In this document: one piece after another, positions 1,991 to 59,074 of the stretch | Numbering within the stretch: the first letter of the stretch is position 1 | Layout of the letters: each line of letters starts with the position of its first letter | Source: a virus | Lineage: Duplodnaviria; Caudoviricetes | DNA length: 64,000 bases | Virus record (IMG/VR): IMGVR_UViG_3300037780_000050 | Span: 19,899 to 83,898 of that record | Strand: one strand, 5' to 3' | Position numbers and translations under genes: made by a program | Notes under the pieces: model-generated | Database searches by the model: none | Told to the model about the DNA's origin: nothing | Seen by the model: only the letters and a program-made list of their open reading frames with translations

Positions 1991-3166
1991 ATGAAGATCC
2001 TGTTCAGGTCGCCCTTGTCCTCACAGTCCGGTTACGGAAATGATGGCATAGGCATGGCGATGGGTCTCATAGACAAGGGCATCGATGTCAGGCTGATACC
2101 GATGCATGTGTCGCCGCCGTTGCCCCGCAAGTTGATCGATCGCTTCGCCCTACCGGTGGAGGCTCCATTCGACATCTACCTCAACCACTCCGACCCAGGG
2201 AGGTTCGAGGTATCACCCGCAGCTCGCAAGACCAGCGAGGTGACCATGGGATGGACCATGTGGGAGTACACCACCCTCCAAAACATGGATGTGGAGGGTC
2301 GATACAACCTGGCGAAGTGCCTGCGCGACTTGGACGTGTTCGTCAGCTACGACGCAGTGACCCACCAGGCGTTCGAGCACTACATGGATCGCATGGCGCT
2401 GCTCCCCGAGAGTCACCCGTTCCACATGACCGAGGATGACCGTCCTCTCCACATCATCGCTCAGGGCGGCTACATCCCAGGCGATTGGCGAGCGCCTGAG
2501 GGTGATGAAGACGAGCGAAACTGGAGCGATGACGGCCCATTCCGGTTCTGCATGGTCGGCATGTTGCACCAGCGCAAGGACCCCATGGTCGCGGTCCTGG
2601 CCTTCAAGGAGTTGAAGGAGGAGATGGGCAGCGAGTTCGAGGATGCCGAGCTGCACTTGAAGACTGCTACCGCAGGCCTGCACTCAGCCATGGAGGAGTG
2701 GGTTCCCAAGCTCCGCATCCACTACGCGTCCTGGCCCCGTGAGATCCTCCAGAAGTTCTACTGGAACATGAACGTGCTGCTGGCACCGTCGCGAGGTGAG
2801 GGCAAGAACATGCCCGCGCTGGAGATGCTCAGCTCCGGTGGGTCGGTGATCGCCACCAACTGGGGTGGTCACACCACATGGATGGATCCCACCTACGCCT
2901 ACCCGCTCGACTACACCCTCGCCCCCGAGCCCCCGTACGAGGACTGCATGTCCGCTCGGGCCAGCAAGGACCATCTCAAGGAGCTGATGTGGCACTGCTA
3001 CACGCACCGCGATGAGGTCCGGCGCAAGGGCGAGATGGGATCGGTGCTCATTCCTCAACGTCAGAATTGGGACACCGTGACAGAGAACATGCTCCGCATC
3101 GTCAGTGAGGCATTGCCGGGCGAGAAGATCCAGACGCTGCTGTCGATCGCCAGGAGAGGAACATGA
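1991..3166 (+). CDS. GT-B fold (GT4-like) glycosyltransferase
   Basis: GGAGGAG RBS; N-terminal SGYG; LLAPSRGEGKNMPALEMLSSGGSVIATNWGG matches the GT4 EGFG-PxLEA signature. Confidence 0.85.
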   Translation: MKILFRSPLSSQSGYGNDGIGMAMGLIDKGIDVRLIPMHVSPPLPRKLIDRFALPVEAPFDIYLNHSDPGRFEVSPAARKTSEVTMGWTMWEYTTLQNMDVEGRYNLAKCLRDLDVFVSYDAVTHQAFEHYMDRMALLPESHPFHMTEDDRPLHIIAQGGYIPGDWRAPEGDEDERNWSDDGPFRFCMVGMLHQRKDPMVAVLAFKELKEEMGSEFEDAELHLKTATAGLHSAMEEWVPKLRIHYASWPREILQKFYWNMNVLLAPSRGEGKNMPALEMLSSGGSVIATNWGGHTTWMDPTYAYPLDYTLAPEPPYEDCMSARASKDHLKELMWHCYTHRDEVRRKGEMGSVLIPQRQNWDTVTENMLRIVSEALPGEKIQTLLSIARRGT

Positions 3167-3456
3167 TCGAGGAGTACCGAGATTGGCGCTGTCCTCACGG
3201 CACCCTGTTCGGCAGGTTCAGCGCAGGGAACCTCACCGTCACCGAGCACAACCTGGCTGAGTTCGCTTGCTCAGATTGCAAGCGCGCGGTGCGTATCGCC
3301 GACCACACCGTGTTTCGGGTGTTGCACCGATTCAACGTCGCCGGAGAGCTGGTCGAGACCATCGTTCAGCGCTCCGGGTACGACGATCAGGTCTTCGTGG
3401 GGTCTGAGTGGATCGAGGCCGATATCAGGGGAGAACTTCGGCTCAACGAGAGGTGA
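3163..3456 (+). CDS. small Cys-containing protein, hypothetical
   Basis: ATGA-coupled; CPHG and CSDC pairs. Confidence 0.55.
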   Translation: MIEEYRDWRCPHGTLFGRFSAGNLTVTEHNLAEFACSDCKRAVRIADHTVFRVLHRFNVAGELVETIVQRSGYDDQVFVGSEWIEADIRGELRLNER

Positions 3457-3465
3457 GAGACGACC

Positions 3466-4032
3466 ATGAGCACACTGAATGTCGAGGGCTTCTCGGTATC
3501 GCACGCGGCCATTCTGGATGGCACCACGGGAGCCGAGGAAGCTGCTGGCGATCTGTACGGCGTCCGTTCCGGTTCGCTGGAGGTCGACATGGACGAGTTC
3601 GACAACACGGGCGACGACTCCGTGCTGTCGAGCTGGATCTGGTTCAACTACGCGAACGTGACGATCGAGATGGGGTACGTCCCCTTCGCCACCATCGCCC
3701 TTCTGACCGGCGCCACCATCATGTCGTCTGGTTCCGATCCCGACGACTACTACGATCTTCCGGTGTGGGAGCAGGGTTCGCTCAACCAGCCCACCCGCCC
3801 GATGCTCATCCGTGTGCCGTCCAAGGACAGTGCGGGCGCGGTGCGGCTGCTGGACATCGTGCTCTACCGGTGCCAGTTCAAGCCCATGGGCTTCGATGGG
3901 CCGTCCTACAAGGACGGTCTGATGATCAACTACAGCGCCAAGGCGCTCATCAGCGATCAGGACGAGGCAGGCAACGCGCTCACTGGTGACCGTCGAGCCA
4001 TCGGCCGACTGGTCAGCAGGCCCGCAGCCTGA
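3466..4032 (+). CDS. major tail tube protein
   Basis: 188 aa, directly before chaperones and TMP; siphoviral tube-like beta pattern. Confidence 0.75.
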   Translation: MSTLNVEGFSVSHAAILDGTTGAEEAAGDLYGVRSGSLEVDMDEFDNTGDDSVLSSWIWFNYANVTIEMGYVPFATIALLTGATIMSSGSDPDDYYDLPVWEQGSLNQPTRPMLIRVPSKDSAGAVRLLDIVLYRCQFKPMGFDGPSYKDGLMINYSAKALISDQDEAGNALTGDRRAIGRLVSRPAA

Positions 4033-20204: not shown

Positions 20205-20542
20205 CCGATCTACTGCCAGACGACCAGTGGGATGAGGGCGCGTTCCCTCAGTACCCCGACGGCGCGGTGCGGGTGTCACGAACAGCGCTCAGCGACCCCG
20301 ACACCTACACACGTCTGGCACTGCTGATCAAGGAGAAGGGTCCGCAGGAGGTGGAGATCAAGTTCACGCCCAGCGGGCGTCCGGTGTGGCTGCCCGAGGG
20401 CGCGGTGTTCACATCGACGCTCGTGCAAGTCAACCGTCAGACGTTCCGTCTCTCTCAGGAGGGGCGCAACCATCCAGTCGACTATTGGTGGGAGGAGGTC
20501 GAATGGATGAAGGTCGGCTCAGCGCTTCCCAGCGTGATCTGA
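20201..20542 (+). CDS. hypothetical protein
   Basis: ATGA-coupled, 113 aa. Confidence 0.55.
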   Translation: MTDLLPDDQWDEGAFPQYPDGAVRVSRTALSDPDTYTRLALLIKEKGPQEVEIKFTPSGRPVWLPEGAVFTSTLVQVNRQTFRLSQEGRNHPVDYWWEEVEWMKVGSALPSVI

Positions 20543-21300
20543 TCACAGAGCACTACAGCTACGCCACCGCGCTGGCTATGCGCCAGCTCTCCCGAGCGCC
20601 ATCTCACGCAGATCGTGAGGAGATCATTTCCTGCGCGTATCTTGGGCTTGTGCAGGCGGTGCAGCGCTGGCCCCACTACTGCGCTGAGAGAGGGTTCTGC
20701 GAGCGTCAGGGCATCGAGCAGGGCTACTTCCGCACCTACATCACCCGACGCATCAACGGCGCGGTGCTCGACCACATGCGGGATCAAGACTGGGTGCGTC
20801 GGTCGAGCAGGAGTCTGCTCAAGCGTCACGGCGGTCCTGGGGTCTCTGACGAGGAGATCGCCGAGCGCAGTGGATCCTCAGTTGCGCAGGTGCGAGCTGC
20901 TCGCGCCGAGGTGGCGCTCAGTCCGATCAGTTTGGATCTGCGCACCGGCTCCGAGGAGGATGCCGGGTGGAGCCCGAGTACTCCCGAGCGTGCCGACATT
21001 CTGACCATGGATGAGGACGACGTGGAGTCGCTGGTCGAGCTGCGCACCGTGTTGGAGGTCTTCTCCAACTGTGTGGACCAGCTCGACCCCATCGAGCAGG
21101 CCGTGTTCATCATGCGGGTGTGGATGCAGATGGACGTGCGAGAGGTCGGTGCCGAGCTGGGCATCCGCCCCGCCCAAGTCAGTGTGATCTACTCGCAGGT
21201 GTGCGAGCAGATCAGTACCGAGGTACTCGCCGAGATGATGGTCACCGGGTTCGAGAAGTCCGGCCGCATCGCCGATCATCTACAAGCCGCAGTCGCATGA
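20503..21300 (+). CDS. sigma-70 family sigma factor, FliA/WhiG-like
   Basis: GGAGGAGG RBS; EIISCAYLGLVQAV, FRTYITRRINGAVLDHMRDQDWVRRS, PISLD, region-4 HTH EVGAELGI. Confidence 0.85.
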   Translation: MDEGRLSASQRDLITEHYSYATALAMRQLSRAPSHADREEIISCAYLGLVQAVQRWPHYCAERGFCERQGIEQGYFRTYITRRINGAVLDHMRDQDWVRRSSRSLLKRHGGPGVSDEEIAERSGSSVAQVRAARAEVALSPISLDLRTGSEEDAGWSPSTPERADILTMDEDDVESLVELRTVLEVFSNCVDQLDPIEQAVFIMRVWMQMDVREVGAELGIRPAQVSVIYSQVCEQISTEVLAEMMVTGFEKSGRIADHLQAAVA

Positions 21301-39572: not shown

Positions 39573-40045
39573 GTACGTCTGATCGATTGGGTGAGATCAT
39601 CACCCAGGCGCAGGTGTGTCGAGCAGAGATCACCAAGCTGTACCCGGCCAAGGGCGCGACCCCGGGTGAGGTGGTCGAGAGCTTGCAGGCGATCCGCCCG
39701 TGGCTCGATGAGTTGGAGACGTTGGTGGTGGCGCTACGCCGCTATCGCAGCGTGAGCGAGCGTGCTCTGGCCACCGCCAAGTCCGCAGCCGAGGACCGTT
39801 GGGACCAGGCTGCACGAGGTAAGGGCGGCAGCGTGCGTGATGCTGGTCCGCGAGAGCGCTACGCACACTTCAATTTGGAGAGCTTTGAGGAGCGTCGCAC
39901 CCAGCGTGAGGCCGAGGCGCTGCACTCCGAGACCACCGCAGCGTTCGATGCTGTGCAGGCCATGTTCCGAGGGGCCGAGAGCATTCGACATGATCTGCAC
40001 GTGCTGATCCGGGCCGCGCAGTTCGAGAGCAGTCTGGAAAGATGA
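39569..40045 (+). CDS. helical coiled-coil protein, possibly a recombination mediator
   Basis: All-helical, 158 aa, near SSB and RecA; function is inference only. Confidence 0.45.
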   Translation: MSTSDRLGEIITQAQVCRAEITKLYPAKGATPGEVVESLQAIRPWLDELETLVVALRRYRSVSERALATAKSAAEDRWDQAARGKGGSVRDAGPRERYAHFNLESFEERRTQREAEALHSETTAAFDAVQAMFRGAESIRHDLHVLIRAAQFESSLER

Positions 40046-40560
40046 GAGAGATGACGAGGAACGCGATCAGCTTCGACTTGGATTCCACCCTGGCCGACAC
40101 CCGCCAGCGCCAGTGGATGGTCCCGATGATCCGTGGCGAGGCCCCCAACCCCGAGGGCTACACGTGGACCGACTACTCCATGCTCTGTGAGCACGACGAG
40201 ACCATCGACGGTGTGTGCACGCTGCTGCGGGGGCTGTACTTCGGTGGGTACTACATCTTGATCAACACCGGTCGCTCTGCCGCGGCCGAGGATTTGACCA
40301 GGGGTTGGCTCAACCGCCACTTCGTGCCGTACAACCATCTGGCCATGCGGCCGGTCGGTGACCACCGCCCCAACGCCGAGCACAAGATCGAGTCCATCAT
40401 CCACTTCGAGGTCAACCACTCAGCCAAGGTGATTCTGCACGTGGATGATTGGGCCGAGGCCGCAGAGGAGGTGGGTCGGCAGTTGAAGATTCCCACGGTG
40501 GTCATCCCTGGCCCCTTCGTCAAGCCCGAGCCCGCTGCGTGGGATCAGGAGAAGGGCTGA
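40042..40560 (+). CDS. HAD-family phosphatase (PNKP phosphatase-like)
   Basis: FDLDSTLAD, INTGRS, MRPVGDHRP, HK and HVDD. Confidence 0.85.
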   Translation: MREMTRNAISFDLDSTLADTRQRQWMVPMIRGEAPNPEGYTWTDYSMLCEHDETIDGVCTLLRGLYFGGYYILINTGRSAAAEDLTRGWLNRHFVPYNHLAMRPVGDHRPNAEHKIESIIHFEVNHSAKVILHVDDWAEAAEEVGRQLKIPTVVIPGPFVKPEPAAWDQEKG

Positions 40561-46078: not shown

Positions 46079-46364
46079 TCTGATAAAGGAGTTTCCGTTG
46101 GCCAGAGATCTGAGAGCACTGTCCCTACCGGACCAGTCCGCAGCGTTGCAGGTGATGGGCTCACCGGTCCCCATCAGGACCATCAACAAGAGCGACATCA
46201 CCGGAGTGCGAATGCAGGCGCTGGCGATCGCTTCGGCAGGCGGGGCGCTCTGGGGCAGCGGTATGGCGTTGGATGACATCTTCGCCGACGCCGAGCGCAT
46301 CGTGCAGTGGGCACTGCGCCCAGCCACACCGGAGGAGGAAGCTGCGGCCAATGGCTCTCGTTGA
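46062..46364 (+). CDS. hypothetical protein
   Basis: Overlaps both neighbours; ~100 aa. Confidence 0.45.
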   Translation: MAMQADLIKEFPLARDLRALSLPDQSAALQVMGSPVPIRTINKSDITGVRMQALAIASAGGALWGSGMALDDIFADAERIVQWALRPATPEEEAAANGSR

Positions 46365-46788
46365 TACGAGTTGGATGCAATACGGGTTGTGCACAAGCAC
46401 CAACATGACCGAGACGTTCTTCCCCGAGGGGCCGACGTCTGACGGTGATTCGTGGAGTGACCGACGCAAGCCGCCACACCCCGGGTACTTGGCCGAGGCG
46501 TACCGTGTGGCGCGACAGCTTTGTTCTCAGTGCCCGGTACAGCCCGAGTGTTTGCAGAGTGCGCTCGATCGAGGTGAGGTCGACCACGGGATATGGGGCG
46601 GGTACAGCCCGCGAGACCGTCGCAGGCTGCGGGCTGGGGTCACTCCCAAGGCTCCGCTGGCAGGGTGTTGCACCCAGTGTGGGTGGCGTGAGTGTCGCTG
46701 TAGTGATGTATCTGGTGTGATCAGCTTCGAGTCGGTATCACACAGAGGGGCGAGACGCCGCCGCCGAGACTTCCGAAGGACGGGATAG
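46351..46788 (+). CDS. whiB: WhiB-family Fe-S transcription factor
   Basis: WMQYGLC, TFFP, ARQLCSQCPVQPECL, GIWGG and basic tail. Confidence 0.92.
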   Translation: MALVDTSWMQYGLCTSTNMTETFFPEGPTSDGDSWSDRRKPPHPGYLAEAYRVARQLCSQCPVQPECLQSALDRGEVDHGIWGGYSPRDRRRLRAGVTPKAPLAGCCTQCGWRECRCSDVSGVISFESVSHRGARRRRRDFRRTG

Positions 46789-46792
46789 CCAG

Positions 46793-47698
46793 TTGCACCG
46801 GGTCAAGATCAGGAACTTCCAGAGCTTGGCCGACGTGGAGTTGGAGCTGGGCAGGTTCACAGTGTTGGTGGGTCCCAGCTCGACTGGCAAGAGCGCGGTG
46901 CTGCGAGCGCTGCGGTTGGTGTTCCGCAACGCCAGGGGCACGTCGTACGTACGTGCCGGATCCAAGGGCACCGAGGTCGACATCGAGGTTCTCGACCCCT
47001 ACCAGAGCGTGAGCATCGCCCGAGGCGTGCTGGGTCGGTCCAACAACTACGTGCTCCATATCAACAGCGCGCCGAGCGAGTTCGCCAAGTGCGGCACGAG
47101 CGTGCCCGAGCCGGTGGCCGAGTGGCTCAACGTGGGCGACGAGAGTCTGTCCACCCAGCACGATGCTCCGTTCCTGCTCACTGCGACCGGCAGCGAGGTG
47201 GCGCAGCTCTTTGGTGAGTTGACTGGCGCAGACGTGCTCCAGAAGGCCGCGGTCAACGGGAGCGCCAGCGCTCGCCAGGCCAAGCAGGACATCGCCGTGG
47301 CCCAGTCAGCGATCGATCAGGCCACCGAGGGACTGGCCCAGCTTCCCGACGTAGACGCTCTCAAACGCTCTGTGAGCGCTGCTGCTGCCATCCTGCGTGC
47401 AGCAGAGCAGGCCGAGGAGTTGCGGCTGCTGGTGGGCAAGCTGGAGCGTGCTCAGAGCAGGGCAGAGGGCGAGCCGTTGCCCGACGTACCGAAGCTCGAC
47501 GTGGTGGAGCAGCTCCAGTACCACCGTTCGCAGTTGCAGGGTTTGATTCAGAACGCGGACCGAGCCGCAGAATCCCAAAAATTGGCGGCGGCGGGTGTCG
47601 AGAGTTCTCAGTCATTCTGGTCTGATAAGAAGTCGGCGCTAGCCGAGCTGATTAACGAAGCTGGTCTGTGTGCAACCTGCCCACTGGTCATCACCTAG
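46793..47698 (+). CDS. Rad50/SbcC-like ABC ATPase, N-terminal half
   Basis: KIRNFQS, GPSSTGKSAVLRAL (Walker A), TQHDAPFLL (Q-loop), coiled coil, terminal CATC. Confidence 0.85.
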   Translation: MHRVKIRNFQSLADVELELGRFTVLVGPSSTGKSAVLRALRLVFRNARGTSYVRAGSKGTEVDIEVLDPYQSVSIARGVLGRSNNYVLHINSAPSEFAKCGTSVPEPVAEWLNVGDESLSTQHDAPFLLTATGSEVAQLFGELTGADVLQKAAVNGSASARQAKQDIAVAQSAIDQATEGLAQLPDVDALKRSVSAAAAILRAAEQAEELRLLVGKLERAQSRAEGEPLPDVPKLDVVEQLQYHRSQLQGLIQNADRAAESQKLAAAGVESSQSFWSDKKSALAELINEAGLCATCPLVIT

Positions 47699-47708
47699 AG
47701 AGGTCCCC

Positions 47709-48092
47709 ATGTCCAAGTCCGAGAAGCCCGACAAGTCCCCCCGAGCCCGTGTGTTGGCAGAGGCCGCAGACGCAGTGCTCCGAGATCGTGCCAACACCTA
47801 CGGCCCACCCGAGGATTCGTTCCGCAAGATCGCATCGCTGTGGAACGGATACCTCGACGCTCGCATGGAGCCCTTCTCCAACCTGACTTCGCTGGACGTG
47901 TGCAACATGCTGGAGCTGCTCAAGATTGCTCGCTCCATCAGCAACCCCGGCCACTTCGACAACTACACCGACCGTGCCGGGTACGCCGCGTGCGCCGCCG
48001 ATCTGGCCCAGTTCATCGATCAGGTGGTCACCCAGGACGGGGGGCTCACCGACGATCAGAAGGCCCACTTGGACACGATGGAGGGCGAGTGA
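47709..48092 (+). CDS. DUF6378-like protein
   Basis: RANTYGPPEDSFRKIASLW, LKIAR and DNYTDRAGYAAC. Confidence 0.75.
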   Translation: MSKSEKPDKSPRARVLAEAADAVLRDRANTYGPPEDSFRKIASLWNGYLDARMEPFSNLTSLDVCNMLELLKIARSISNPGHFDNYTDRAGYAACAADLAQFIDQVVTQDGGLTDDQKAHLDTMEGE

Positions 48093-50245: not shown

Positions 50246-50478
50246 GCGACGACATCACCCAGCGCATCCAGCTCGCCAAGGAGCGGCTGGAGACCGCGCA
50301 GCGCAGCGTGATCGAGCACAACACCCAGCTCAGGTTGGCCACCGAGGAGCTGGAGCGGGTCACCGCCGAGATGCAGGAGAAGTTCGGCGTGGCCACGCTG
50401 GACGAGGCCCGAGAAAAGCTGGCGCAGATCGACGCCAAGATCATCGAGAAGCTCGATGAGTTGACCAAGGAGTTGTGA
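50242..50478 (+). CDS. 78-aa coiled-coil protein, possible Rad50 coiled-coil fragment
   Basis: Pure heptad repeat; ATGA-coupled. Confidence 0.6.
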   Translation: MSDDITQRIQLAKERLETAQRSVIEHNTQLRLATEELERVTAEMQEKFGVATLDEAREKLAQIDAKIIEKLDELTKEL

Positions 50479-51596
50479 TGGAGTTCCACGCCAAGCGGTA
50501 CGTGCTGTGGGCGATGCTCGACAAGGCATCCAAGGTGGTGCCGAGCCGTGACACCATGCCGGTGCTCAAGAACTTCTACGTGGAGGCGACCCCCGACGAG
50601 GTGCGGGTCGCGGCCACCGACTTGGAGCTGAGTCTGATCGTGGACGCCCAGTTGGTGCACGTGGATCAGCCCGGCAGCGCCATCATCCCGAGCCGCAAGC
50701 TGCTGGAGATCGTCGCGGCTGCCGAGGACGAGGAGGCGTACATCAGGGTGGCCGATGGCCGCTGTCACATCGACATCGGGCGCGCGTCGTGGACGCTGAC
50801 GATCAACACCCAGCCCGACGCCTACCCACCGCTTCCCGACGTGAGCGCCGAGTTCGCTGCCGAGGTCAACAGGGCCGAGCTGCTGGGAGCGTTCCAGATG
50901 GTCGAGCGAGCCGCAGGTAGGGCCACGGCGCGACCCAACTTGATGGTGCTCGACATCCACGACGGCAAGGTCACCGGGACCGATGGGGTGCGCTGTCAGC
51001 AGGTGAGGATGGAGTCATGGCCCGCCAACGTGGACATGCAGATCCCGATCGGCGCGGTGGACGAGCTGATCCGGCTGCTGCGCAGCACCGAGGCCGAGAC
51101 AATCGAGGTGGCCGAGACCGAAGACCATCTGTTGTTCCGGGTCGGCCAGGACTTGTTCGTGGCCAACAGCGTGGCCATGGAGTTCCCGCCCGTGGACCAG
51201 CAGTTGGTGGTCCCCGCGCTGGAGAACGACCAGCGGCTGACGTGTGACCGCGAGGAGTTGACCGAGGCGCTGCGCCGGGTTCGTATCACCGCCGACCCCG
51301 ACACCAGCGCGGTGGTGATGGACTTGACCGAGGACACGCTGACGTTGCGGTGCCGGGACAAGATGGCCAACGAGAGCGTGGAGTCCATCGATTGCGGGTG
51401 GAGCTACGAGGACCGGTCCGTGGTCGTCAACCATGTGTTCTTGATGGACATGTTGAAGATGGCCGACGCGCGCACGTGCGAGTTCTACTTGGGCAAGGAC
51501 AAGACCAACAGCCGCAGCCCGTTGTTGCTGCGTGACGAGTCCAAGGGCATGGTCGGCATCGTCAGCCAGATGCGAGCCGATTGGGTCACCCAGTGA
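50478..51596 (+). CDS. dnaN: DNA polymerase III beta sliding clamp
   Basis: TMPVLKNF, AATDLE, PGSAIIPSRKL, GTDGVR and FPPV; ~372 aa. Confidence 0.9.
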   Translation: MEFHAKRYVLWAMLDKASKVVPSRDTMPVLKNFYVEATPDEVRVAATDLELSLIVDAQLVHVDQPGSAIIPSRKLLEIVAAAEDEEAYIRVADGRCHIDIGRASWTLTINTQPDAYPPLPDVSAEFAAEVNRAELLGAFQMVERAAGRATARPNLMVLDIHDGKVTGTDGVRCQQVRMESWPANVDMQIPIGAVDELIRLLRSTEAETIEVAETEDHLLFRVGQDLFVANSVAMEFPPVDQQLVVPALENDQRLTCDREELTEALRRVRITADPDTSAVVMDLTEDTLTLRCRDKMANESVESIDCGWSYEDRSVVVNHVFLMDMLKMADARTCEFYLGKDKTNSRSPLLLRDESKGMVGIVSQMRADWVTQ

Positions 51597-52234
51597 GCGT
51601 TGCCCGCGCCCGGGAGGTGTACCAGCAGCTCTATTCCAAGATGTCGAGTGCTCAGGGCCAGAAGGAGATGCTGGAGGCCCAGTTGGCCAACGGCACCGCA
51701 GCGCTGGAGCGTGCCACCGAGGATCAGCGCATCAACGCCGAGGCTCAGATGTTGCTGAGCGCGGTGGCCACCGAGCGCCAGGGCCAGTTCCGCCAGAGTC
51801 TGGAGACGTTGGTGACCCATGGTCTCCAGACCGTGTTCGGTGACGAGTCGCTGCACTTCCACATCGTGGAGGAGGTCAAGGCCGGACGCCCCCAGGTGTC
51901 CTTCGAGGTCGAGAGCACCATGGGCGACGAGACGGTGCGCACCAGCGTGATGGATGCCAGGGGAGGTGGGTTGGCGAGCGTGGTGGGGTTCTTCATCAGG
52001 TTGAGCGTGCTGCTGCTCAGCGGGCACCGTCGCATCATGCTGCTCGATGAGACCTTCGCTCAGCTCAGCGCCGGGTACGAGCCGCAGATGGCCGAGTGGT
52101 TGGCCGACCTGTGTGTGCGAGCTGAGGTGCAGATCGTGATGGTGACCCACAGCGATGCCTACAGCGAGCACGCTGATGTGGTGTACCGAACGAGTCAGTC
52201 GGGGGGAGTGACCAGTGTCGAGCGGGTCCGGTAG
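51593..52234 (+). CDS. Rad50/SbcC-like ABC ATPase, C-terminal half
   Basis: Coiled coil, ARGGG signature, IMLLDET (Walker B), VTHS (H-loop). Confidence 0.85.
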   Translation: MSVARAREVYQQLYSKMSSAQGQKEMLEAQLANGTAALERATEDQRINAEAQMLLSAVATERQGQFRQSLETLVTHGLQTVFGDESLHFHIVEEVKAGRPQVSFEVESTMGDETVRTSVMDARGGGLASVVGFFIRLSVLLLSGHRRIMLLDETFAQLSAGYEPQMAEWLADLCVRAEVQIVMVTHSDAYSEHADVVYRTSQSGGVTSVERVR

Positions 52235-52823
52235 CAAGGTCTGCTCGCGCTGCGGCGAGGAGCGCCCGCTCACCCAGTTCGGGCAGAGTCACTACACCAA
52301 GCCGAGGAAGCGGACCTACCACCACCGGGTGTGTGTGGTCTGCAAAGACGAGATCTCCGAGCGTAAGGCCACGAAGGAGGAGCTTCGCACGCTGCGTGCG
52401 TTTGGCATCGTCCCCGACCGGGAGCGGGTGGATGGGCCATCGAGTACCGAGCGTCAGCCCGGGGAGAGCTTCACCAAGGAGTGTTCGGAGTGCCGCGAGG
52501 TCAAGGCCGTGCAGGAGTTCGCGTGGCGCAACAAGGCCGAGAGATCCCGCCGTCCCAGGTGTCGTCAGTGCGAGCAGCAGGCCCGCAGGAGGCGTCGGGA
52601 GCGTCTTGGTGATGATGAGTACCGCCGCCAGAATCGAGAGGCTCAGAGGCGTCACAGGTCAGAGAAGTGGCGTGCGAAGGACCATGAGGCTGCCAGGGTG
52701 CAGCGTCGTGCCCATGCTCGCGCATCAGCGGAGTTGAGAGAGCGCCACCGTGAGGAGTTCGACCGGCTGTACGCGCAGGCCAAGGAACTAGAATCAGCGT
52801 TGGCAGATGAGGAGATCGAGTGA
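52215..52823 (+). CDS. double Zn-finger basic protein
   Basis: CSRC with CVVC and CSEC with CRQC; Arg-rich tail; no HNH core seen. Confidence 0.55.
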   Translation: MSSGSGSKVCSRCGEERPLTQFGQSHYTKPRKRTYHHRVCVVCKDEISERKATKEELRTLRAFGIVPDRERVDGPSSTERQPGESFTKECSECREVKAVQEFAWRNKAERSRRPRCRQCEQQARRRRRERLGDDEYRRQNREAQRRHRSEKWRAKDHEAARVQRRAHARASAELRERHREEFDRLYAQAKELESALADEEIE

Positions 52824-55771
52824 AGCACCGCACCCCGCGCCAGATCCAGAAGTTCTTGGATGAGAATCTCTACCGGTTCGATCTCCCGAGCCAGTATTAC
52901 GGCGACGAGCCCAACGCCTACGGCAAGGAGTGGGCCGACGGTCAGGCCCGATGGTTGATCGCTGCGTCGTGGCCATACGAGCAGGCCGCGGGCAATCAGT
53001 CCATCCCCGCGGTCTACAAGCAGATCAACGATGCCGAGCGAGGGCTCGCCGACCGGTGGTATCTGCCCAACACCCCGAGAGACATGGGGTTCTTCGAGAA
53101 GTCGGACATCCCCATCTTCGGCATCGAGTCCAAGCGCCAGGCCAGCGACTTCGACATCGTGGCCACATCGATCAGCTACCCCGTGCTGATCATCTCGTTC
53201 GTCAAGCAGTTGCTGATGAGCGGTATCCCTGCCGACCGCAAGGTCCGGGCCGAGAGCCCCGAGGCGTGGCCGATGGTCATCATCGGCGGGCAGGCGTATG
53301 GCGCTCCGGGTCCGCTGGAGCCGATCGCGGATGCGATCTGGTGTGGTGAGGTGGAGGAGGAGCCGGGCAATCCCGGCATCCAGACCTTCACCGAGCGGGT
53401 GGCCCAGTTCAAGGCCGTTGGTGTGTGGGACACCGAGCGCAGTCGGTGCTACTACGAGTTGGCCCGAGAGTTCCCCTTCGTCGTGTTCCCCGAGCACACC
53501 GACGTGCACTACGGGTACGAGGACCGGAGTCATGTGGGGTTGGACGAGCCCAGCTTGCAGGTCCAGAGCTACACCATCAACCGATCTGGTCTGAGGGCGC
53601 CGTTCGTCAAGCGGTTCGTCAAGGACATGGACTCCATCGCCCCGCTCGACAACCCACCGCTGCTCTACGCAGATCCAGGGATGGGTGCAGGAGACTTGGA
53701 GGTGGGTCGAGGGTGTCCCGCGTGGTGCTCGTTCTGCGCACTCACGTACCGGCAGAAGCCCTACCGCCAGCGCAGCGTGGGTTACATGACCGACTTCGCG
53801 CAGCGGGTCAAGAACAACCAGGGCGCCACGAGGCTGGTGCCGTTCATGCCCGACTTCCCCATGCACACTCAGCGCCGCGGGCTGATCGCATCGCTGATGG
53901 AGAACGTGAGTGATGAGGTTGATGGCGGGGCCATGCGGGTGGACGACTTCATTGCCGACAACAACTACATCTTGTTGCAGGTCCAGGGCGGTATGGATGC
54001 TCTGACATTGGGCTTGGAGGGCAACAGTCAGCGGATGCGGGATTTCGTGGGCAAGGGTTGCTCCGATGCCGACATCGAGGAGGCGGTGGTTCGAGGCATC
54101 AGCGCAGGCATCACCAAGTTCAAGTTCTTCATGATCTCGAATATGCCGGGCGAGGATGAGGGCGACGTGTTCCGCATCCTGGCGCTGGCCAAGAAGCTCA
54201 GCGACATTCGTGAGCGCATGGGCAAGCCCAAGGTCCAGTTCCAGTTCTCGTGGACTCCGATGTTGATCGAGGCCAACACTCCGTTCCAGTGGTTCGCTCC
54301 CGCCACCAACACCCGGGCGCTGACCGACGTGTGGGAGGAGTTCAGAGATCTCAATGTGCAGTTCAAGCTGGGGGGCAAGAGCGAGTCCAACAAGGCCACG
54401 TTCTTCCAGCTTTGTCAGCGTGTGGGGAGGCTAGGGGGTGAGGCCATCCTGGCGGTGTGCGAGGCCATTGCAGCCAACCCAGGAGGTGCTTGCTGGGGAG
54501 GGGTGCCTCGCAAGCGCATCAAGGGCTACGAGATTCCCGAGCGTCCGGGTGAGCCGGTCAACACCGAGCAGGCGTTGGAGTACGAGCTGCGCAAGCGAGG
54601 GTTCCGCAACGGGTTCGGTGACTGCTTCGATGAGCGCTTCAAGGATGATCTGTTCGGATGGGAGCACATCGATCAGGGCATCCACCCCGAGCTGTTGTGG
54701 CGCACGTACGTGCAGATGCGGGAGTTCTTGGAGCAGACCGACAGCCACACCTACGATCAGCAGTTCACCGACGAGGGCTACCGCGGCAACGAGTGGATCG
54801 AGCGCTGCGACACCAAGTGTTACGGCAAGACGTGCGGGACGTGTGATGCCGACGACTTGAAGATCCGGCGCAACTACATCATCGCTGCCCAGAGCGAGGA
54901 CAAGAGGGATCTTCACGAGATCGTGAGCTTGGACGAGCGGTCCAAGGCCGTGAAGGTCCGTGCCCGGCTGCACAAGAGCGAGGATCGCAGGTTCATCACC
55001 AACGACCACTGGCGGTTCCATGTTCGCCGAGCCGCATACCTGGCGCTGCAAGATCTTGAAGTCACCGACTTCACGATCACCAAGCGGTCGATCCGCTTTG
55101 CCAGCGATGGGTTGGAGTACCGGGACTGGACGTGCGGTGTGGACTACGTGGAGTTCGCGTTCACCAGGGCTCTGGGCCGCAAGCGCATCGCTGTGATCAT
55201 GGAGGCCATGAATCGTCACATGCGGGGCATTCAGCTCGACACTGAGGCGTGGAGCGTGTATCCGCCCACGAGTGCCAGTCTGCGCAGTGATGTGGATCTG
55301 AGCTTGTGGAGTGTGCCGCTGCGTGACGAGCCGGGCGTGGTTCTCAGGGCTATCGAGGCGTGGCATTCCAGCGACTACGTGAAGATGATCATGCTCAAGG
55401 AGCAGACGTTCTTCGAGAGCGGTCACAGCGTGGTCAATGCCAAGGACTACTGCGAGGACGTGTGGTTGGCCCGAGATGGAACTGATCTGGTCGTCAAGAT
55501 GATGATCCGAGGCAAGGCCAGCCCCTACGCCGTGCTCGCTGCGTTGTTGGGCAAGAGTTCGTGGATCGAGGCCGCGTCGCTGCCCGCGCGGCGGTTGGAG
55601 TCGTTCTTGGAGTGGGACGAGGACCAGACCGACTTCTTCCGCCCCAGCAGCGTGGTGAGCGGGTCTTCCATCCCCGTGAATCCTCTGGATCAGCCGTTCC
55701 ACCCCGAGTACACCCCGAAGGAGCTGGACGAGGCCCAGGGGTATCTGGTGTCATCGCTGGCGTTCCGGTAG
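52820..55771 (+). CDS. large radical SAM protein (TIGR03960-like) fused to a TIGR03936/DUF2344-like domain
   Basis: PSQYYGDEPN, FGIESKRQASDFDIV, IIGG, EVGRGCPAWCSFC (CxxxCxxC), RVDD, EGNSQRMR; C-terminal KVRARLHK and RFI. Confidence 0.85.
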   Translation: MKHRTPRQIQKFLDENLYRFDLPSQYYGDEPNAYGKEWADGQARWLIAASWPYEQAAGNQSIPAVYKQINDAERGLADRWYLPNTPRDMGFFEKSDIPIFGIESKRQASDFDIVATSISYPVLIISFVKQLLMSGIPADRKVRAESPEAWPMVIIGGQAYGAPGPLEPIADAIWCGEVEEEPGNPGIQTFTERVAQFKAVGVWDTERSRCYYELAREFPFVVFPEHTDVHYGYEDRSHVGLDEPSLQVQSYTINRSGLRAPFVKRFVKDMDSIAPLDNPPLLYADPGMGAGDLEVGRGCPAWCSFCALTYRQKPYRQRSVGYMTDFAQRVKNNQGATRLVPFMPDFPMHTQRRGLIASLMENVSDEVDGGAMRVDDFIADNNYILLQVQGGMDALTLGLEGNSQRMRDFVGKGCSDADIEEAVVRGISAGITKFKFFMISNMPGEDEGDVFRILALAKKLSDIRERMGKPKVQFQFSWTPMLIEANTPFQWFAPATNTRALTDVWEEFRDLNVQFKLGGKSESNKATFFQLCQRVGRLGGEAILAVCEAIAANPGGACWGGVPRKRIKGYEIPERPGEPVNTEQALEYELRKRGFRNGFGDCFDERFKDDLFGWEHIDQGIHPELLWRTYVQMREFLEQTDSHTYDQQFTDEGYRGNEWIERCDTKCYGKTCGTCDADDLKIRRNYIIAAQSEDKRDLHEIVSLDERSKAVKVRARLHKSEDRRFITNDHWRFHVRRAAYLALQDLEVTDFTITKRSIRFASDGLEYRDWTCGVDYVEFAFTRALGRKRIAVIMEAMNRHMRGIQLDTEAWSVYPPTSASLRSDVDLSLWSVPLRDEPGVVLRAIEAWHSSDYVKMIMLKEQTFFESGHSVVNAKDYCEDVWLARDGTDLVVKMMIRGKASPYAVLAALLGKSSWIEAASLPARRLESFLEWDEDQTDFFRPSSVVSGSSIPVNPLDQPFHPEYTPKELDEAQGYLVSSLAFR

Positions 55772-55787
55772 AGAGCATGATGGTGAG

Positions 55788-56006
55788 ATGCTCGATCCCA
55801 AGAGGCGTTCTCCGAATCACCCGGAGCTTGTCCAAGACGACGATGGGAACTGGTGGGAGGTCATCTCAGATGATGGGGGTGGTCTCACTACGTTGGAGGC
55901 AATCGCGGCCTACTTGGTAGGCGTGGCTGTTGTCGTTGGTTCGTCGTTGTACGTGTGGGCCATGGTCCGAGGTTTACGTGGTCTGGTGAGGATGGTGTTG
56001 AATTGA
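55788..56006 (+). CDS. small membrane protein
   Basis: C-terminal TM helix. Confidence 0.5.
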   Translation: MLDPKRRSPNHPELVQDDDGNWWEVISDDGGGLTTLEAIAAYLVGVAVVVGSSLYVWAMVRGLRGLVRMVLN

Positions 56007-56815
56007 TCAGGGCAGAGGTAGTGGCAGACAGCATCACTTCGGATGGGTCGAGGCTGACCACTGTGGTGGGGACGTGCCACCGGTTCGTGCTGGCCGAGCT
56101 GAACACTCATCGGGTGTTCAGTCGCAACAGCGCCAGCAGTCGAGCCATCCCAACCCACAAGCGCATCGCGCAGGTGCTGGACGATCCGGCGATCCCCATC
56201 GAGTTCGGCTCCAATCAGGCCGGAATGCAGGCCGGTGCTCCCATCGAGGACGAGGACAAGGCCCGCAACGAGTGGCTCCGGGCGCGTGATGCCGCGGTCG
56301 AGCACGCTTCGGCGTTGTTGGAGATGGGCGTCCACAAGCAGGTCGTCAACCGGGTGCTGGAGCCATTCATGTGGCACACCGTGGTGATCAGCAGCACCTA
56401 CTGGGAGAACTTCTTCGACCAGCGATGCAGCCCGCTGGCTCAGCCTGAGATCCGTGCGTTCGCCGAGGTTGTGCGGGGCGCCATCGAAGGCAGTGAGCCG
56501 GATTGGCTCACCCCGGGCGAGTGGCATCTTCCATTCACGCGAGATTCCACCTATGCGGACACGTATGAGCAGATCAGGGTGTCGGTGGCGCGTTGCGCTC
56601 GCACGAGCTACGAGACGCACGATGGCGAGATCGACGTAGCGAAAGATCTGGAGCTGTACCAGAAGCTGGTGAATGCCCGACCTATGCACGCCAGCCCATT
56701 GGAGCATGTGGCGTGCGTCTTGGTTGAGCCGCTGGGTACGAGCAATTTCTACCCCAGGTGGGAGCAGTGGCGGTCGACGGTGGAGAAGAACCGAGGGTTG
56801 GAGACGCGTCGATGA
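56003..56815 (+). CDS. thyX: FAD-dependent thymidylate synthase
   Basis: VADSI, RLTT, HRFVLAELNTHRVFSRNSASSRAIP and HASPLEH; start uncertain (TTG 56003). Confidence 0.85.
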   Translation: MIRAEVVADSITSDGSRLTTVVGTCHRFVLAELNTHRVFSRNSASSRAIPTHKRIAQVLDDPAIPIEFGSNQAGMQAGAPIEDEDKARNEWLRARDAAVEHASALLEMGVHKQVVNRVLEPFMWHTVVISSTYWENFFDQRCSPLAQPEIRAFAEVVRGAIEGSEPDWLTPGEWHLPFTRDSTYADTYEQIRVSVARCARTSYETHDGEIDVAKDLELYQKLVNARPMHASPLEHVACVLVEPLGTSNFYPRWEQWRSTVEKNRGLETRR

Positions 56816-57045
56816 GTCTCGTCGTTCTGTGTCCCGACCCCGAGTGTGGTGGGGAGTGCGAGGTCGAGCAGGATGGTGACCACCGGTACTTCGAGTGCAT
56901 CGAGTGCGGCTACAGCTTCGGCTACGAGCGCCAGTTGCAAGATCTGACCACCGACACGTGCGCTATCGGTGTTCCCATCGAGATCCGACAGCGTGCCATG
57001 GGTGAGCCGACGTCTGTGCCGGTGACGCTCACCAAGAAGGGGTAG
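56812..57045 (+). CDS. small Zn-ribbon protein
   Basis: CPDPEC and CIEC. Confidence 0.6.
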   Translation: MSLVVLCPDPECGGECEVEQDGDHRYFECIECGYSFGYERQLQDLTTDTCAIGVPIEIRQRAMGEPTSVPVTLTKKG

Positions 57046-57049
57046 GGGC

Positions 57050-58201
57050 ATGAGCTTGGCCATCAAGTACCGTCCCCGAAGTTTCCAAGCTACGAGCGGT
57101 CAGAAGCCCGTGAGGGTGGTGCTGCGCCAGATGGTGCGCACCATGCAGGTGCCCAACGCTCTGTTGTTCACCGGGAGCAGGGGCACGGGCAAGACGACCA
57201 CGGCGCGGGTGCTGGCCGCAGCGCTCAACGCTTCGCTCGATGGCGATGTGGATCCAGAGTCTGCTGTGGCGCAATCGATCTTGGACGGGCGCAGCACCGA
57301 TGTGATCGAGCTGGACGCTGCCAGCAACGGTGGCGTGGACAGTGTGCGGGAGATCAGGGAGCTGGTCCAGTACGAGCCCCAGGGGTGGCGTGTGGTGATT
57401 CTGGACGAGGCCCACTCCATGACCCGGGAGGCGTTCAACGCACTGCTCAAGACGCTGGAGGAGCCGCCACCGAGGACCGTGTTCGTGTTGGTGACCACCG
57501 AGCCGCAGCGCATCATCGAGACCGTTCGCAGCAGGTGCATGGAGTTCGTGTTCACGAGGTTGAGCGTGGCCGACATCGTGGCCCGGCTGCGGGAGGTGGC
57601 TGACGCCGAGGAGATGCAGATCAGCGACGAGCTGCTGCACCACTTGGCTGGTCTGGTGCAGGGTGCCATGCGTGATGCACTGATGCTGCTCGATCAGTGT
57701 CGGGTGGTCGGCATCGAGACCGTGGAGGCGTGGCAGGAGTTCAGCGGTGAGGCCGATGTGGCTCCGAAGATCTTGTTGGCGTGCGTCCGAGGGGATATGG
57801 CGGGTGCGTTCAGCGCGGTGAGCGAGGCACTGCAATCGACGGGAGACGTAACTGGTCTGGTGGATGCGATCATCGCAACGCTGCGCGACGTGACGCTGCT
57901 CCAGGCAGACATCGCAATCACAGCCACAGGGCAGGGGTTCATCGACCGTCAGGCGCTGGCCACCATGATCGAGCCCATGAGGCTGCCGATGGCGTTCAGG
58001 GTGCTGTGGGGGCTTCGTAGTGGTCTCCGACTAGGGTCGGGGCGTCGTGAGGATGTCGAGCTGTGTGCCGCGGTGCTGAGCGATGTGCTGTGCCTACAGA
58101 AGCCCCAACCAACGCCACCGCCACACTCCAATGTGTTGCCGTGCTCGACATCTGCCGATGATGAAGAAGTGACTCTGGACGACATGAGGAGCATGACATG
58201 A
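57050..58201 (+). CDS. dnaX: DNA polymerase III gamma/tau-like clamp loader ATPase (domains I-III)
   Basis: LAIKYRPRSF, GSRGTGKTTTAR, ELDAASNGGVD, ILDEAHSM, AFNALLKTLEEPP and TVRSRC. Confidence 0.93.
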   Translation: MSLAIKYRPRSFQATSGQKPVRVVLRQMVRTMQVPNALLFTGSRGTGKTTTARVLAAALNASLDGDVDPESAVAQSILDGRSTDVIELDAASNGGVDSVREIRELVQYEPQGWRVVILDEAHSMTREAFNALLKTLEEPPPRTVFVLVTTEPQRIIETVRSRCMEFVFTRLSVADIVARLREVADAEEMQISDELLHHLAGLVQGAMRDALMLLDQCRVVGIETVEAWQEFSGEADVAPKILLACVRGDMAGAFSAVSEALQSTGDVTGLVDAIIATLRDVTLLQADIAITATGQGFIDRQALATMIEPMRLPMAFRVLWGLRSGLRLGSGRREDVELCAAVLSDVLCLQKPQPTPPPHSNVLPCSTSADDEEVTLDDMRSMT

Positions 58202-58345: not shown

Positions 58346-59074
58346 GTGCTGGTCTCCATCGGATGCATGATGCGGGACGCCGGTCCCTACTTCACGCGGT
58401 GGAGAGGTCAGATCGAGCGAGCCGCCATGTACCTGGCCAACCAGGGCGATCAGGTGGTCTGTGTGGTGCTGGAGAACGACTCCACCGACGACACCCGGGA
58501 CAGGCTGCGTCAGTTCGCCGAGACCACCGAGTTCGAGGTGGTCTGGACGAGTGTCGAGACCGGCTCCAACTACTGGCCCAGTGTCGACCACCCAGACCGA
58601 TGGAGGCACTTGGCCAGGCTGTGTGAGAAGGTCAGGTTGCTCCAGGCAGGGACCGGTGCCGACACTCACGTGTACGTGGAGTGTGACCTTCGCTGGGACC
58701 CCAAGACCGTGGCTGATCTGGTCAAGCTGTCCCAGCACCAGCCTCACGCCGCGTTCAGCCCCATGCTGATGTGCGACTGGGACAGGAGCCGGTACTACGA
58801 CACGTGGGGCACCGAGGGCATCGATGGGGTGTGCTTCACTGCGGAGCCGCCCCACCACGACCATCTTCGAGGTGCTGAGTACGTGAACGTGAACAGCGTG
58901 GCAGGCATGACCGTGGTCAGCGACACCATCCTGAGGAACACCACGTGGGTGGATGAGCACAGACCAGAGTGCTACCGCACGTGGAACAGGTCGATGAGAG
59001 AGGCAGGGTACGGAGTGGTGCTGAGCAAGTGGCACTACGTGTACCACCCAGAGCCGAGCGAGTTGAGGGGGTAG
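58346..59074 (+). CDS. GT-A fold glycosyltransferase
   Basis: VLENDSTDDT, RWRHLARL, YVECDL (DxD-like) and YYDTWG. Confidence 0.7.
   Translation: MLVSIGCMMRDAGPYFTRWRGQIERAAMYLANQGDQVVCVVLENDSTDDTRDRLRQFAETTEFEVVWTSVETGSNYWPSVDHPDRWRHLARLCEKVRLLQAGTGADTHVYVECDLRWDPKTVADLVKLSQHQPHAAFSPMLMCDWDRSRYYDTWGTEGIDGVCFTAEPPHHDHLRGAEYVNVNSVAGMTVVSDTILRNTTWVDEHRPECYRTWNRSMREAGYGVVLSKWHYVYHPEPSELRG

Follow-up and report, generated by a model that had tools for sequence, protein, structure and literature searches.

A phage radical SAM protein encoded between sliding-clamp and clamp-loader genes

One of the widespread radical SAM systems for which we found no assigned chemistry is the cellular pair formed by the TIGR03960 'B12-binding radical SAM protein' (rSAM_fuse_unch) and the TIGR03936 (DUF2344, PF10105) 'radical SAM-associated protein', which occur either fused or adjacent. 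We found the pair in 29 of 61 sampled Actinomycetota genomes, and in 5 of 5 actinobacterial genomes checked TIGR03936 lies directly upstream of RNase E/G. Full-text literature searches on these families and COG5011, on 'radical SAM-linked' proteins, on radical SAM genes with rne and rplU, and on phage radical SAM genes with inteins and clamp loaders found no paper on function. Precedents exist for radical SAM enzymes that act directly on DNA (spore photoproduct lyase) or on a uridine in tRNA (Elp3). Other B12-type members have different targets: MgmA methylates a protein glutamine and OxsB rearranges a nucleotide.

Here we analyse a phage gene that joins both halves of this pair in a single chain. 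It lies in a 64,000-nucleotide stretch (the window; positions 19,899 to 83,898) of the IMG/VR record IMGVR_UViG_3300037780_000050, a contig of 83,898 bases with direct terminal repeats from an uncultured soil phage, probably of Actinobacteria. A sequence-only reading of the window had noted a 983-residue fusion with an intact CxxxCxxC motif, a TIGR03960-type N-terminal region, an extra Cys cluster and a TIGR03936/DUF2344-like C-terminal domain. We confirm that observation. The gene (52820-55771, +) is intact, with a GTG start 7 nt after a GAGGAG Shine-Dalgarno sequence and a GC3 of 0.85.

The N-terminal half belongs to the TIGR03960 type, though distantly. Pfam searches match PF19864 (Radical_SAM_N2, residues 64-181; 3.6e-20) and PF04055 (residues 294-456; 2.6e-8). 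The TIGR03960 model covers residues 15-498 (model positions 2-466 of 605) with E 2e-43, but the score of 148.8 bits is far below the curated cut-off of 462.3; bona fide bacterial proteins score 699 and 986 bits. All 30 family members examined hit this model, the best with E 2.1e-57, which is still far below the cut-off. A Rossmann-type, B12-binding-like domain (52862-53689, +; residues about 15-290) precedes the radical SAM TIM-barrel core (53690-54424, +; residues about 291-535). The barrel contains CPAWCSFC (53714-53737, +), the CxxxCxxC ligands C299, C303 and C306 of the SAM-binding [4Fe-4S] cluster. A second cluster, C-x3-C-x4-C-x2-C (C663, C667, C672 and C675), lies in CDTKCYGKTCGTC at 54806-54844 (+). 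Both sets of Cys are invariant in 30 relatives, and C663, C667 and C672 are invariant columns in an alignment with the C-terminal Cys cluster of bacterial TIGR03960 proteins (Actinosynnema and a faecal scaffold).

Is the C-terminal domain (54941-55615, +; residues about 708-932) truly related to DUF2344? No TIGR03936 or DUF2344 model hits this protein at E<=10, and direct searches of the record with PF10105 and TIGR03936 found nothing. The domain is nevertheless real. Five of 30 relatives hit PF10105/TIGR03936 (best E 5.5e-5 with Pfam and 3.9e-6 with NCBIfam), and hhalign of the family's C-terminal part against 26 bona fide TIGR03936 proteins gives 96.7%, E 4.5e-10, over 211 columns (template positions 2-219 of 234). 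A structure search of the ESM Atlas returned TIGR03936/DUF2344 clusters at TM 0.38-0.45, which is only a lead.

The predicted fold of this domain is that of TruA-type pseudouridine synthases. In an AF2 model of the protein (pLDDT 83, pTM 0.85), residues 710-960 match TruA, Pus1, PUS3 and PUS10 at Z 10-11.9 (1dj0, 11.9; 1vs3, 11.8; 2nqp, 11.7), with about 200 aligned residues. Pfam treats DUF2344 as part of the pseudouridine synthase domain (PMC7955657), and the TIGR03936 model weakly cross-hits truA genes. By hhalign, bacterial DUF2344 aligns to TruA at 78.7%, with RTDAGVH of TruA over a consensus 'aLPvGv' that has no Asp; the catalytic Asp of the RTD motif falls on Pro. The mapping onto the phage domain is indirect, because direct hhalign of the phage domain against TruA gave only 0.6% and the link rests on structure and on the bacterial intermediate. 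If the G-V is matched, Thr771 takes the place of the Asp, but an invariant D775 sits two residues after the conserved G-V.

The sequence-only reading inferred nucleotide or nucleic-acid chemistry from ThyX, MazG, a DUF6378-like gene, a GT-A and a nucleotidyltransferase nearby. A ThyX-like gene is indeed present at 55955-56815 (+; Thy1, 54.6 bits) and DUF6378 at 47670-48092. However, thyX lies beside the gene in only 3 of 21 related phage loci, the 'GT-A' at 58346-59074 is a sub-threshold hit (25.2 bits against 28.8), and no MazG or nucleotidyltransferase appeared in the ORFs scanned. The interpretation is partly supported: its direction, towards nucleic-acid chemistry, a family with no assigned function and not a trivial host copy, stands on different evidence. 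That evidence is the predicted TruA/Pus-type fold, the position of cellular TIGR03936 genes beside RNase E/G, the deeply conserved position between clamp and clamp loader, and a clamp-binding-like peptide specific to the phage forms.

The conserved order is SbcD, PD-(D/E)XK nuclease, DnaN clamp, SbcC-like ATPase half, this gene and DnaX clamp loader. It holds in the 19 of 21 IMG/VR loci long enough to show the upstream genes, and all or part of it is seen in seven metagenome contigs whose radical SAM protein is 26-57% identical. In the window DnaN lies at 50475-51596 (+; 19 of 21 loci) and the DnaX-type ATPase at 57050-58201 (+; 19 of 21), with a 95-residue zinc-ribbon protein between the radical SAM gene and DnaX at 56758-57045 (+; 17 of 21). 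Just upstream, at 51581-52234 (+; 19 of 21), is a 217-residue ATPase (phrog_15167). We considered it as a dedicated partner and rejected this, because it carries the ABC signature, Walker B and H-loop and looks like the C-terminal half of a split SbcC/Rad50, whose Walker A half is at 46793-47698. An HNH/endonuclease VII-like gene (52215-52823, +) overlaps the radical SAM start by 4 nt; it is absent from all 21 related loci and so is probably a mobile homing endonuclease. Conserved order within one phage lineage can, of course, reflect shared descent rather than function.

Could the gene be a recent passenger captured from a host? Donors are at hand, given the frequency of the cellular pair in Actinomycetota. 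The evidence contradicts this reading, and we regard it as very unlikely. The protein is only 25-27% identical to bona fide bacterial TIGR03960. In a tree, all 22 bacterial-clade rows lie on one side of a starred branch and every phage row whose gene context was checked lies on the other. A scan of 185,579 bacterial and archaeal species genomes with two family-specific peptide patterns found one ordinary bacterial TIGR03960 and no phage-type copy. Gene order, moreover, is conserved down to 26% identity.

The phage family is large, with 130 cluster representatives at E<=1e-30. PHROGs gave no family for the protein, INPHARED phages gave only 23-27% identical hits to the N-terminal half and no full-length relative, and BFVD gave only generic radical SAM matches. 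The nearest cultured phage, Microbacterium phage Magritte (PolA 34% and DnaN 31% identical), has the clamp but not this gene, so the enzyme is not needed for replication as such. Inteins are found in 22 of 120 close relatives (about 18%), placed at the CxxxCxxC loop (the main site), at about residue 520 and in the second Cys cluster (in the relative P0067). These sites independently mark the two Cys clusters as functional centres. We take the inteins, together with the HNH gene abutting the start codon, as signs of an important gene.

Following the C-terminal domain is QTDFF (residues 936-940; 55625-55639, +), a pentapeptide in a predicted coil segment (pLDDT 73 for this block) that resembles the β-clamp-binding motif. 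A strict Q.D[FLMW][FLWM] pattern occurs at the same place in 92 of 121 close relatives, with variants such as QDDMF, QFDLF and QEDFF in deep clades, and in 0 of 22 bacterial-clade relatives. It is the only such pentapeptide in 18,658 residues of window proteins. Clamp binding is inferred from sequence alone, and two features weigh against it: about a quarter of close relatives have Q replaced (for example VIDFF), and the motif is followed by a zinc ribbon rather than lying at a free terminus. Most relatives have a CxxC...CPxC zinc ribbon in the C-terminal tail (55640-55768, +), although in this protein all four Cys are replaced, by Ser, Ser, Thr and Lys. We first considered a G-x-L-V-x-x-L-x-F sequence at the extreme C-terminus as the clamp hook, but dropped it because only a subset of relatives has it.

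A second possibility, which we hold to be less likely than docking at the replisome, is that the protein modifies RNA, doing the same job as the cellular pair. The substrate would be host or phage tRNA, rRNA or mRNA, for example to retune translation or RNA decay; the place of the gene in the replication module would only reflect early or middle timing, and QxDFF would be a structural element. The pseudouridine-synthase fold is an RNA-binding fold and the cellular relatives sit beside RNase E/G, which favours an RNA substrate over DNA. The N-terminal half also resembles the RNA and ribosomal-protein methylthiotransferases MiaB and RimO. Against this view, the phage forms have gained a QxDFF peptide that the 22 bacterial-clade relatives lack, and the gene stays between clamp and clamp loader even at 26% identity. 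The window holds no convincing tRNA gene; the single ARAGORN call, a tRNA-Arg(GCG), lies inside an ORF and is probably false.

It is also conceivable, though unlikely, that the substrate is a small molecule or a protein, such as a nucleotide-pool metabolite, a cofactor or a replisome protein. The best structural matches of the catalytic half are MgmA, OxsB, CysS, TsrM and AprD4, and a thyX-like gene is adjacent here and in 3 of 21 relatives. But a 225-residue pseudouridine-synthase-type domain, conserved and fused in every member, is hard to explain for a small-molecule substrate, and no conserved small-molecule pathway genes lie nearby.

We favour, at roughly even confidence, a model in which this is a core gene of a large group of uncultured tailed phages, probably infecting Actinobacteria, and encodes a divergent, single-chain version of the cellular pair directed at nucleic acid and tethered to the phage replisome. 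The analysis itself establishes the order of the modules: the Rossmann-type domain and barrel with an intact CxxxCxxC, the second four-Cys site, the TruA-type fold as modelled, the Q-x-D-F-F peptide and, in most relatives, the zinc ribbon. What these parts do is inference. The [4Fe-4S]/SAM site would generate a 5'-deoxyadenosyl radical. The pseudouridine-synthase-like domain seems to lack the catalytic Asp, so it would serve as a grip that presents a flipped-out nucleotide to the radical site. The QxDFF peptide would dock the enzyme on the phage's own DnaN, so that it would work on freshly primed or copied phage nucleic acid, either DNA or the RNA primer or hybrid. The reaction would be a radical C-H functionalization, such as a C-methylation or a repair reaction.

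The most far-reaching version of this model, which we offer tentatively, is that the enzyme rides the sliding clamp and writes a radical-SAM-dependent covalent mark on newly made phage DNA, or repairs it there, using a dead pseudouridine-synthase fold as a base-flipping DNA grip. That would be a replication-coupled DNA modification system of a kind not described before, present in hundreds of soil and sediment phages. If the protein modifies or repairs DNA at the fork, it would add a new enzyme class to phage DNA modification and anti-restriction biology and would show a pseudouridine-synthase fold re-used on DNA. If it acts on RNA, it would point to the function of the cellular family next to RNase E/G. 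The phage version gives a sharper handle on the cellular problem: it is a single, deeply conserved polypeptide set in a defined context of clamp, clamp loader and recombination nucleases, and carries a candidate docking peptide.

How does the protein compare with described systems? With spore photoproduct lyase and Elp3 it has no detectable sequence or domain relationship beyond the radical SAM core. Class B (cobalamin-type) radical SAM enzymes such as MgmA (9ccb), OxsB, CysS, TsrM and TokK likewise have a Rossmann domain followed by a radical SAM barrel; the match of residues 44-535 to MgmA has Z 15.9 over 368 aligned residues with an rmsd of 3.4. The resemblance is one of predicted fold alone, and none of these enzymes carries a pseudouridine-synthase-type domain or a clamp motif. 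The methylthiotransferases MiaB, MtaB and RimO have a similar three-part layout of N-terminal flavodoxin-like domain, radical SAM barrel and C-terminal substrate-binding domain (MiaB Z 13.1, RimO Z 12.1). In the phage family, however, residues 1-290 have no invariant Cys triad (only C210 is conserved at 90% or more), the auxiliary Cys site lies after the barrel, and a pseudouridine-synthase-like domain takes the place of TRAM.

The TruA, Pus1, PUS3 and PUS10 enzymes share the predicted C-terminal fold with an rmsd of 3.3-3.9 but only 9-12% identity. On the indirect mapping of the catalytic Asp, the phage domain is probably not a pseudouridine synthase but a binding module. The QxDFF peptide has the Q-x-D-hydrophobic-F form of the internal clamp-binding motif of Escherichia coli Pol III alpha, which is QADMF (strengthened form QLDLF; PMC3664792), but it sits between a folded domain and a zinc ribbon. 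The closest relative remains the cellular TIGR03960/TIGR03936 pair, with which the phage protein shares the order of modules from the PF19864 domain through the barrel and Cys cluster to DUF2344. It differs in being always fused, in carrying insertions at about residues 232-262, 510-580 and 640-660, in adding a QxDFF peptide and usually a zinc ribbon, in its frequent invasion by inteins, and in lying between DnaN and DnaX instead of upstream of RNase E/G.

Window 52820-55771 (+) is an uninterrupted ORF of 983 codons. It has a GTG start seven bases after a GAGGAG Shine-Dalgarno and the third-position GC content of a real gene (0.85). The window is the last 64 kb of an 83.9-kb IMG/VR virus record with direct terminal repeats, and all of its plausible genes lie on the + strand. 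The sequence is from a phage. What is its host? A WhiB-family transcription factor gene lies at 46273-46788, the window is 64% GC, and the nearest cultured phage is Microbacterium phage Magritte, whose PolA and DnaN are 34% and 31% identical to those of the window. Together these point to an actinobacterial host. The phage also encodes a sigma-70-like factor with regions 2, 3 and 4 and a protein like the phosphatase domain of polynucleotide kinase (PNKP), at 20386-21300 and 40042-40560. A scan for tRNA genes with ARAGORN called a tRNA-Arg(GCG) at 46869-46944, but this lies inside the SbcC-like ORF and is probably a false positive.

Pfam finds Radical_SAM_N2 at residues 64-181 (3.6e-20) and Radical_SAM at residues 294-456 of the encoded protein. 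NCBIfam finds TIGR03960 at E 2e-43, although the score, 148.8 bits, falls below the curated cut-off of 462.3 and the match covers only model positions 2-466 of 605. Two cysteine-containing motifs, CPAWCSFC (C299/C303/C306) and CDTKCYGKTCGTC (C663/C667/C672/C675), are invariant in an alignment of 30 relatives. When the protein is aligned with two bona fide bacterial TIGR03960 proteins (699 and 986 bits), the second cluster falls on their C-terminal Cys cluster; it is therefore a family feature, not an addition. No DUF2344 or TIGR03936 HMM hits this protein directly, but 5 of the 30 relatives are hit. Furthermore, an hhalign comparison of the family's residues 690-983 with 26 bona fide TIGR03936 proteins gives 96.7% probability (E 4.5e-10) over 211 columns that cover the whole domain.

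An AlphaFold2 model built on the 30-sequence alignment has pLDDT 83 and pTM 0.85; its only poor loops are the two Cys clusters, as expected in the absence of metal. In this predicted structure, residues 44-535 superpose on the cobalamin-type radical SAM methylase MgmA (Z 15.9, 368 residues, rmsd 3.4) and on MiaB and RimO (Z 12-13). Residues 710-960 superpose on TruA, Pus1, PUS3 and PUS10 (Z 10-11.9, about 200 residues, rmsd 3.3-3.9). The second match agrees with Pfam's treatment of DUF2344 as one half of the pseudouridine synthase domain (PMC7955657). It also agrees with a sequence-level trace of the DUF2344-TruA relationship in actinobacterial genomes: weak TIGR03936 hits (E 3e-6 to 9e-4, model positions about 46-120) fall inside the truA genes of those genomes (genome, contig and position: G003:C3:95779-95970, G029:C18:16070-16300, G030:C13:41612-41827 and G020:C14:15947-16132). 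Does the domain retain pseudouridine synthase chemistry? Bacterial DUF2344 aligns to 15 actinobacterial TruA proteins at 78.7% (E 1.7e-5), and the catalytic RTDAGVH of TruA falls on a consensus 'aLPvGv', so the catalytic Asp is not kept. For the phage domain the mapping is only indirect. It puts Thr771 at that place, with an invariant D775 close by, and we do no more than lean towards a dead fold.

The family is large. A word-indexed search gave 380 relatives, of which the best 120 all scored above 1100 bits, at 49-100% identity. An exhaustive phmmer search of 1.84 billion cluster representatives gave 130 hits at E<=1e-30, 1691 at E<=1e-10 and 3734 at E<=0.001. Twenty-one IMG/VR contigs of up to 152 kb carry the gene. 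In contrast, a scan of one genome for each of 185,579 bacterial and archaeal species, using two family-specific peptide patterns, found only one ordinary TIGR03960 gene (Actinosynnema, 26% identity) and no phage-type copy. We also built a FastTree of 97 N-terminal parts. The 22 rows that cluster with the two bona fide bacterial proteins lie on one side of a starred branch, and every row whose context we checked as phage lies on the other. The tree is unrooted and was made with FastTree alone, and most bacterial-clade rows are labelled bacterial only by their clustering. Nesting among host orthologues as a recent passenger, which had been named beforehand as the result that would count against the proposal, is not what is seen, and we consider a passenger gene very unlikely.

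A tblastn comparison of the window's proteins with the 21 loci shows a fixed gene order: RecA, a 406-aa protein, an SbcC-like Walker-A half, SbcD/Mre11, a PD-(D/E)XK nuclease, DnaN (window 50475-51596), a 217-aa ATPase, this gene, a 95-aa zinc-ribbon protein and DnaX. All or part of the same order appears in metagenome contigs whose radical SAM protein is 57, 56, 36, 31, 26, 26 and 26% identical to this one. The 217-aa ATPase (51581-52234, phrog_15167) was considered as a dedicated partner, but it carries the ABC signature, Walker B and H-loop and so looks like the second half of a split SbcC. An SbcC/Rad50-like ATPase thus appears to be divided between this half and a 301-aa Walker-A half at 46793-47698, the two being separated by DUF6378, SbcD, the PD-(D/E)XK nuclease and DnaN; the split and the order are conserved in most related phage loci. 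thyX, in contrast, is adjacent in only 3 of the 21 loci. The ThyX-like protein of this phage (55955-56815) matches only profile positions 60-181 of Thy1 (54.6 bits) and reads THRVFSRNSASSR where ThyX usually has an RHR...S motif.

Related phage contigs carry other genes in or near the module. One (GCA_013565735.1, locus L024) has a gene for a 577-aa protein with a TROVE (Ro60-like) domain at 2021-3754, a few kb upstream of the same replication module. Another, of 200 kb (locus L025), has a YoeB/Phd gene pair and a PemK-like toxin gene with a small upstream ORF, at 3266-3789 and 9001-9549; both lie on the opposite strand inside the replication module, one of them directly upstream of the radical SAM gene. 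In Magritte (locus L052, 7842-9080), gene 247 is annotated 'ASCE ATPase' but is 31% identical over 92% of this window's DnaN, which has all three beta-clamp Pfam domains; it is probably a sliding clamp. Magritte has this clamp but not the radical SAM gene, so the enzyme is an accessory to replication rather than part of the core machinery.

The gene is often invaded by inteins. Twenty-two of the 120 closest relatives are 1259-1622 aa long, and several of these carry LAGLIDADG or intein-splicing Pfam domains. The insertions map to three places: query residues 289-308 (the CxxxCxxC loop, in most cases), about residue 520, and residue 670 in the second Cys cluster. Some alleles (the relatives P0125, of 2062 aa, P0128, P0126 and P0067) align to the query in three or four separate stretches, which implies two or three inteins in one gene; representatives of up to 2062 aa align in four. 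Inteins favour conserved catalytic sites of important genes. This supports both Cys clusters as functional and the gene as one the phages cannot easily lose. In the present phage the gene directly upstream (52215-52823) is HNH/endonuclease VII-like, overlaps the radical SAM start codon by 4 nt and is absent from all 21 related loci. It is probably a free-standing homing endonuclease beside a conserved target, which would parallel the inteins inside the gene in other phages.

The protein also carries a peptide that resembles a clamp-binding motif. QTDFF, at residues 936-940, lies in a coil between the pseudouridine-synthase-like domain and the tail, where the local pLDDT of the model dips to 73. 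A strict pattern is present at the same place in 92 of 121 close relatives, QQDFL being the commonest form, and deep clades carry QDDMF, QFDLF, QEDFF, QDDLF or x-x-D-M-F just before the zinc-ribbon CxxC. None of the 22 bacterial-clade rows has it. It is the only such pentapeptide among 18,658 residues of window proteins. That it binds the clamp is inferred from sequence alone. Most family members end in a CxxC...CPxC zinc ribbon; this protein (window 55640-55768) and a minority of relatives have replaced some or all of its four Cys, here all four, by Ser/Ser/Thr/Lys, while keeping the QxDFF peptide and the spacing (proteins P0003, P0006, P0009, P0011, P0014, P0015, P0044, P0061 and P0113).

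In cells, TIGR03936 is over the curated cut-off in 29 of 61 sampled genomes of the phylum of Actinosynnema. In all five genomes that we checked it lies directly upstream of the RNase E/G gene, with TIGR03960 zero to 10 kb further upstream. Two unpublished genomes (G002 and G019) count only as negatives in this tally and as positives in the 30-of-31 truA tally; no sequence from them was used, locus L071 was left out, and without them the first tally is 29 of 59. The RNase E/G neighbourhood, together with the predicted pseudouridine-synthase fold, argues for an RNA-related role in cells. A plain RNA-modification role is likewise a possible reading of the phage protein, though a doubtful one.

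The sequence-only reading was correct in what it observed: an intact radical SAM fusion gene lies at this place. Its interpretation, that neighbours such as thyX point to nucleotide or nucleic-acid chemistry, is partly supported, being right in direction but resting on neighbours that are not conserved. The best-supported reading, to which we give middling confidence, is a nucleic-acid-directed radical SAM enzyme that the phages keep in their replisome module and probably tether to their own clamp. The gene, its motifs, its relationship to the two cellular families and its conserved place among replication genes are direct results of the analysis; action on nucleic acid, whether on DNA or on primer or other RNA, and docking on the clamp are inferred. 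A non-nucleic-acid substrate is unlikely.

The phage protein belongs with a known but uncharacterised group of proteins, from which it differs in several respects. It scores 148.8 bits against TIGR03960, compared with 699 and 986 bits for the two bona fide bacterial proteins, yet it shares their C-terminal Cys cluster. Its gene keeps company with DnaN and DnaX, whereas TIGR03936 lies directly upstream of RNase E/G in the five cellular genomes checked. Its QTDFF peptide, of a pattern missing from the 22 bacterial-clade rows, resembles the internal clamp-binding motif of E. coli Pol III alpha, which is QADMF; QLDLF binds more tightly (PMC3664792).
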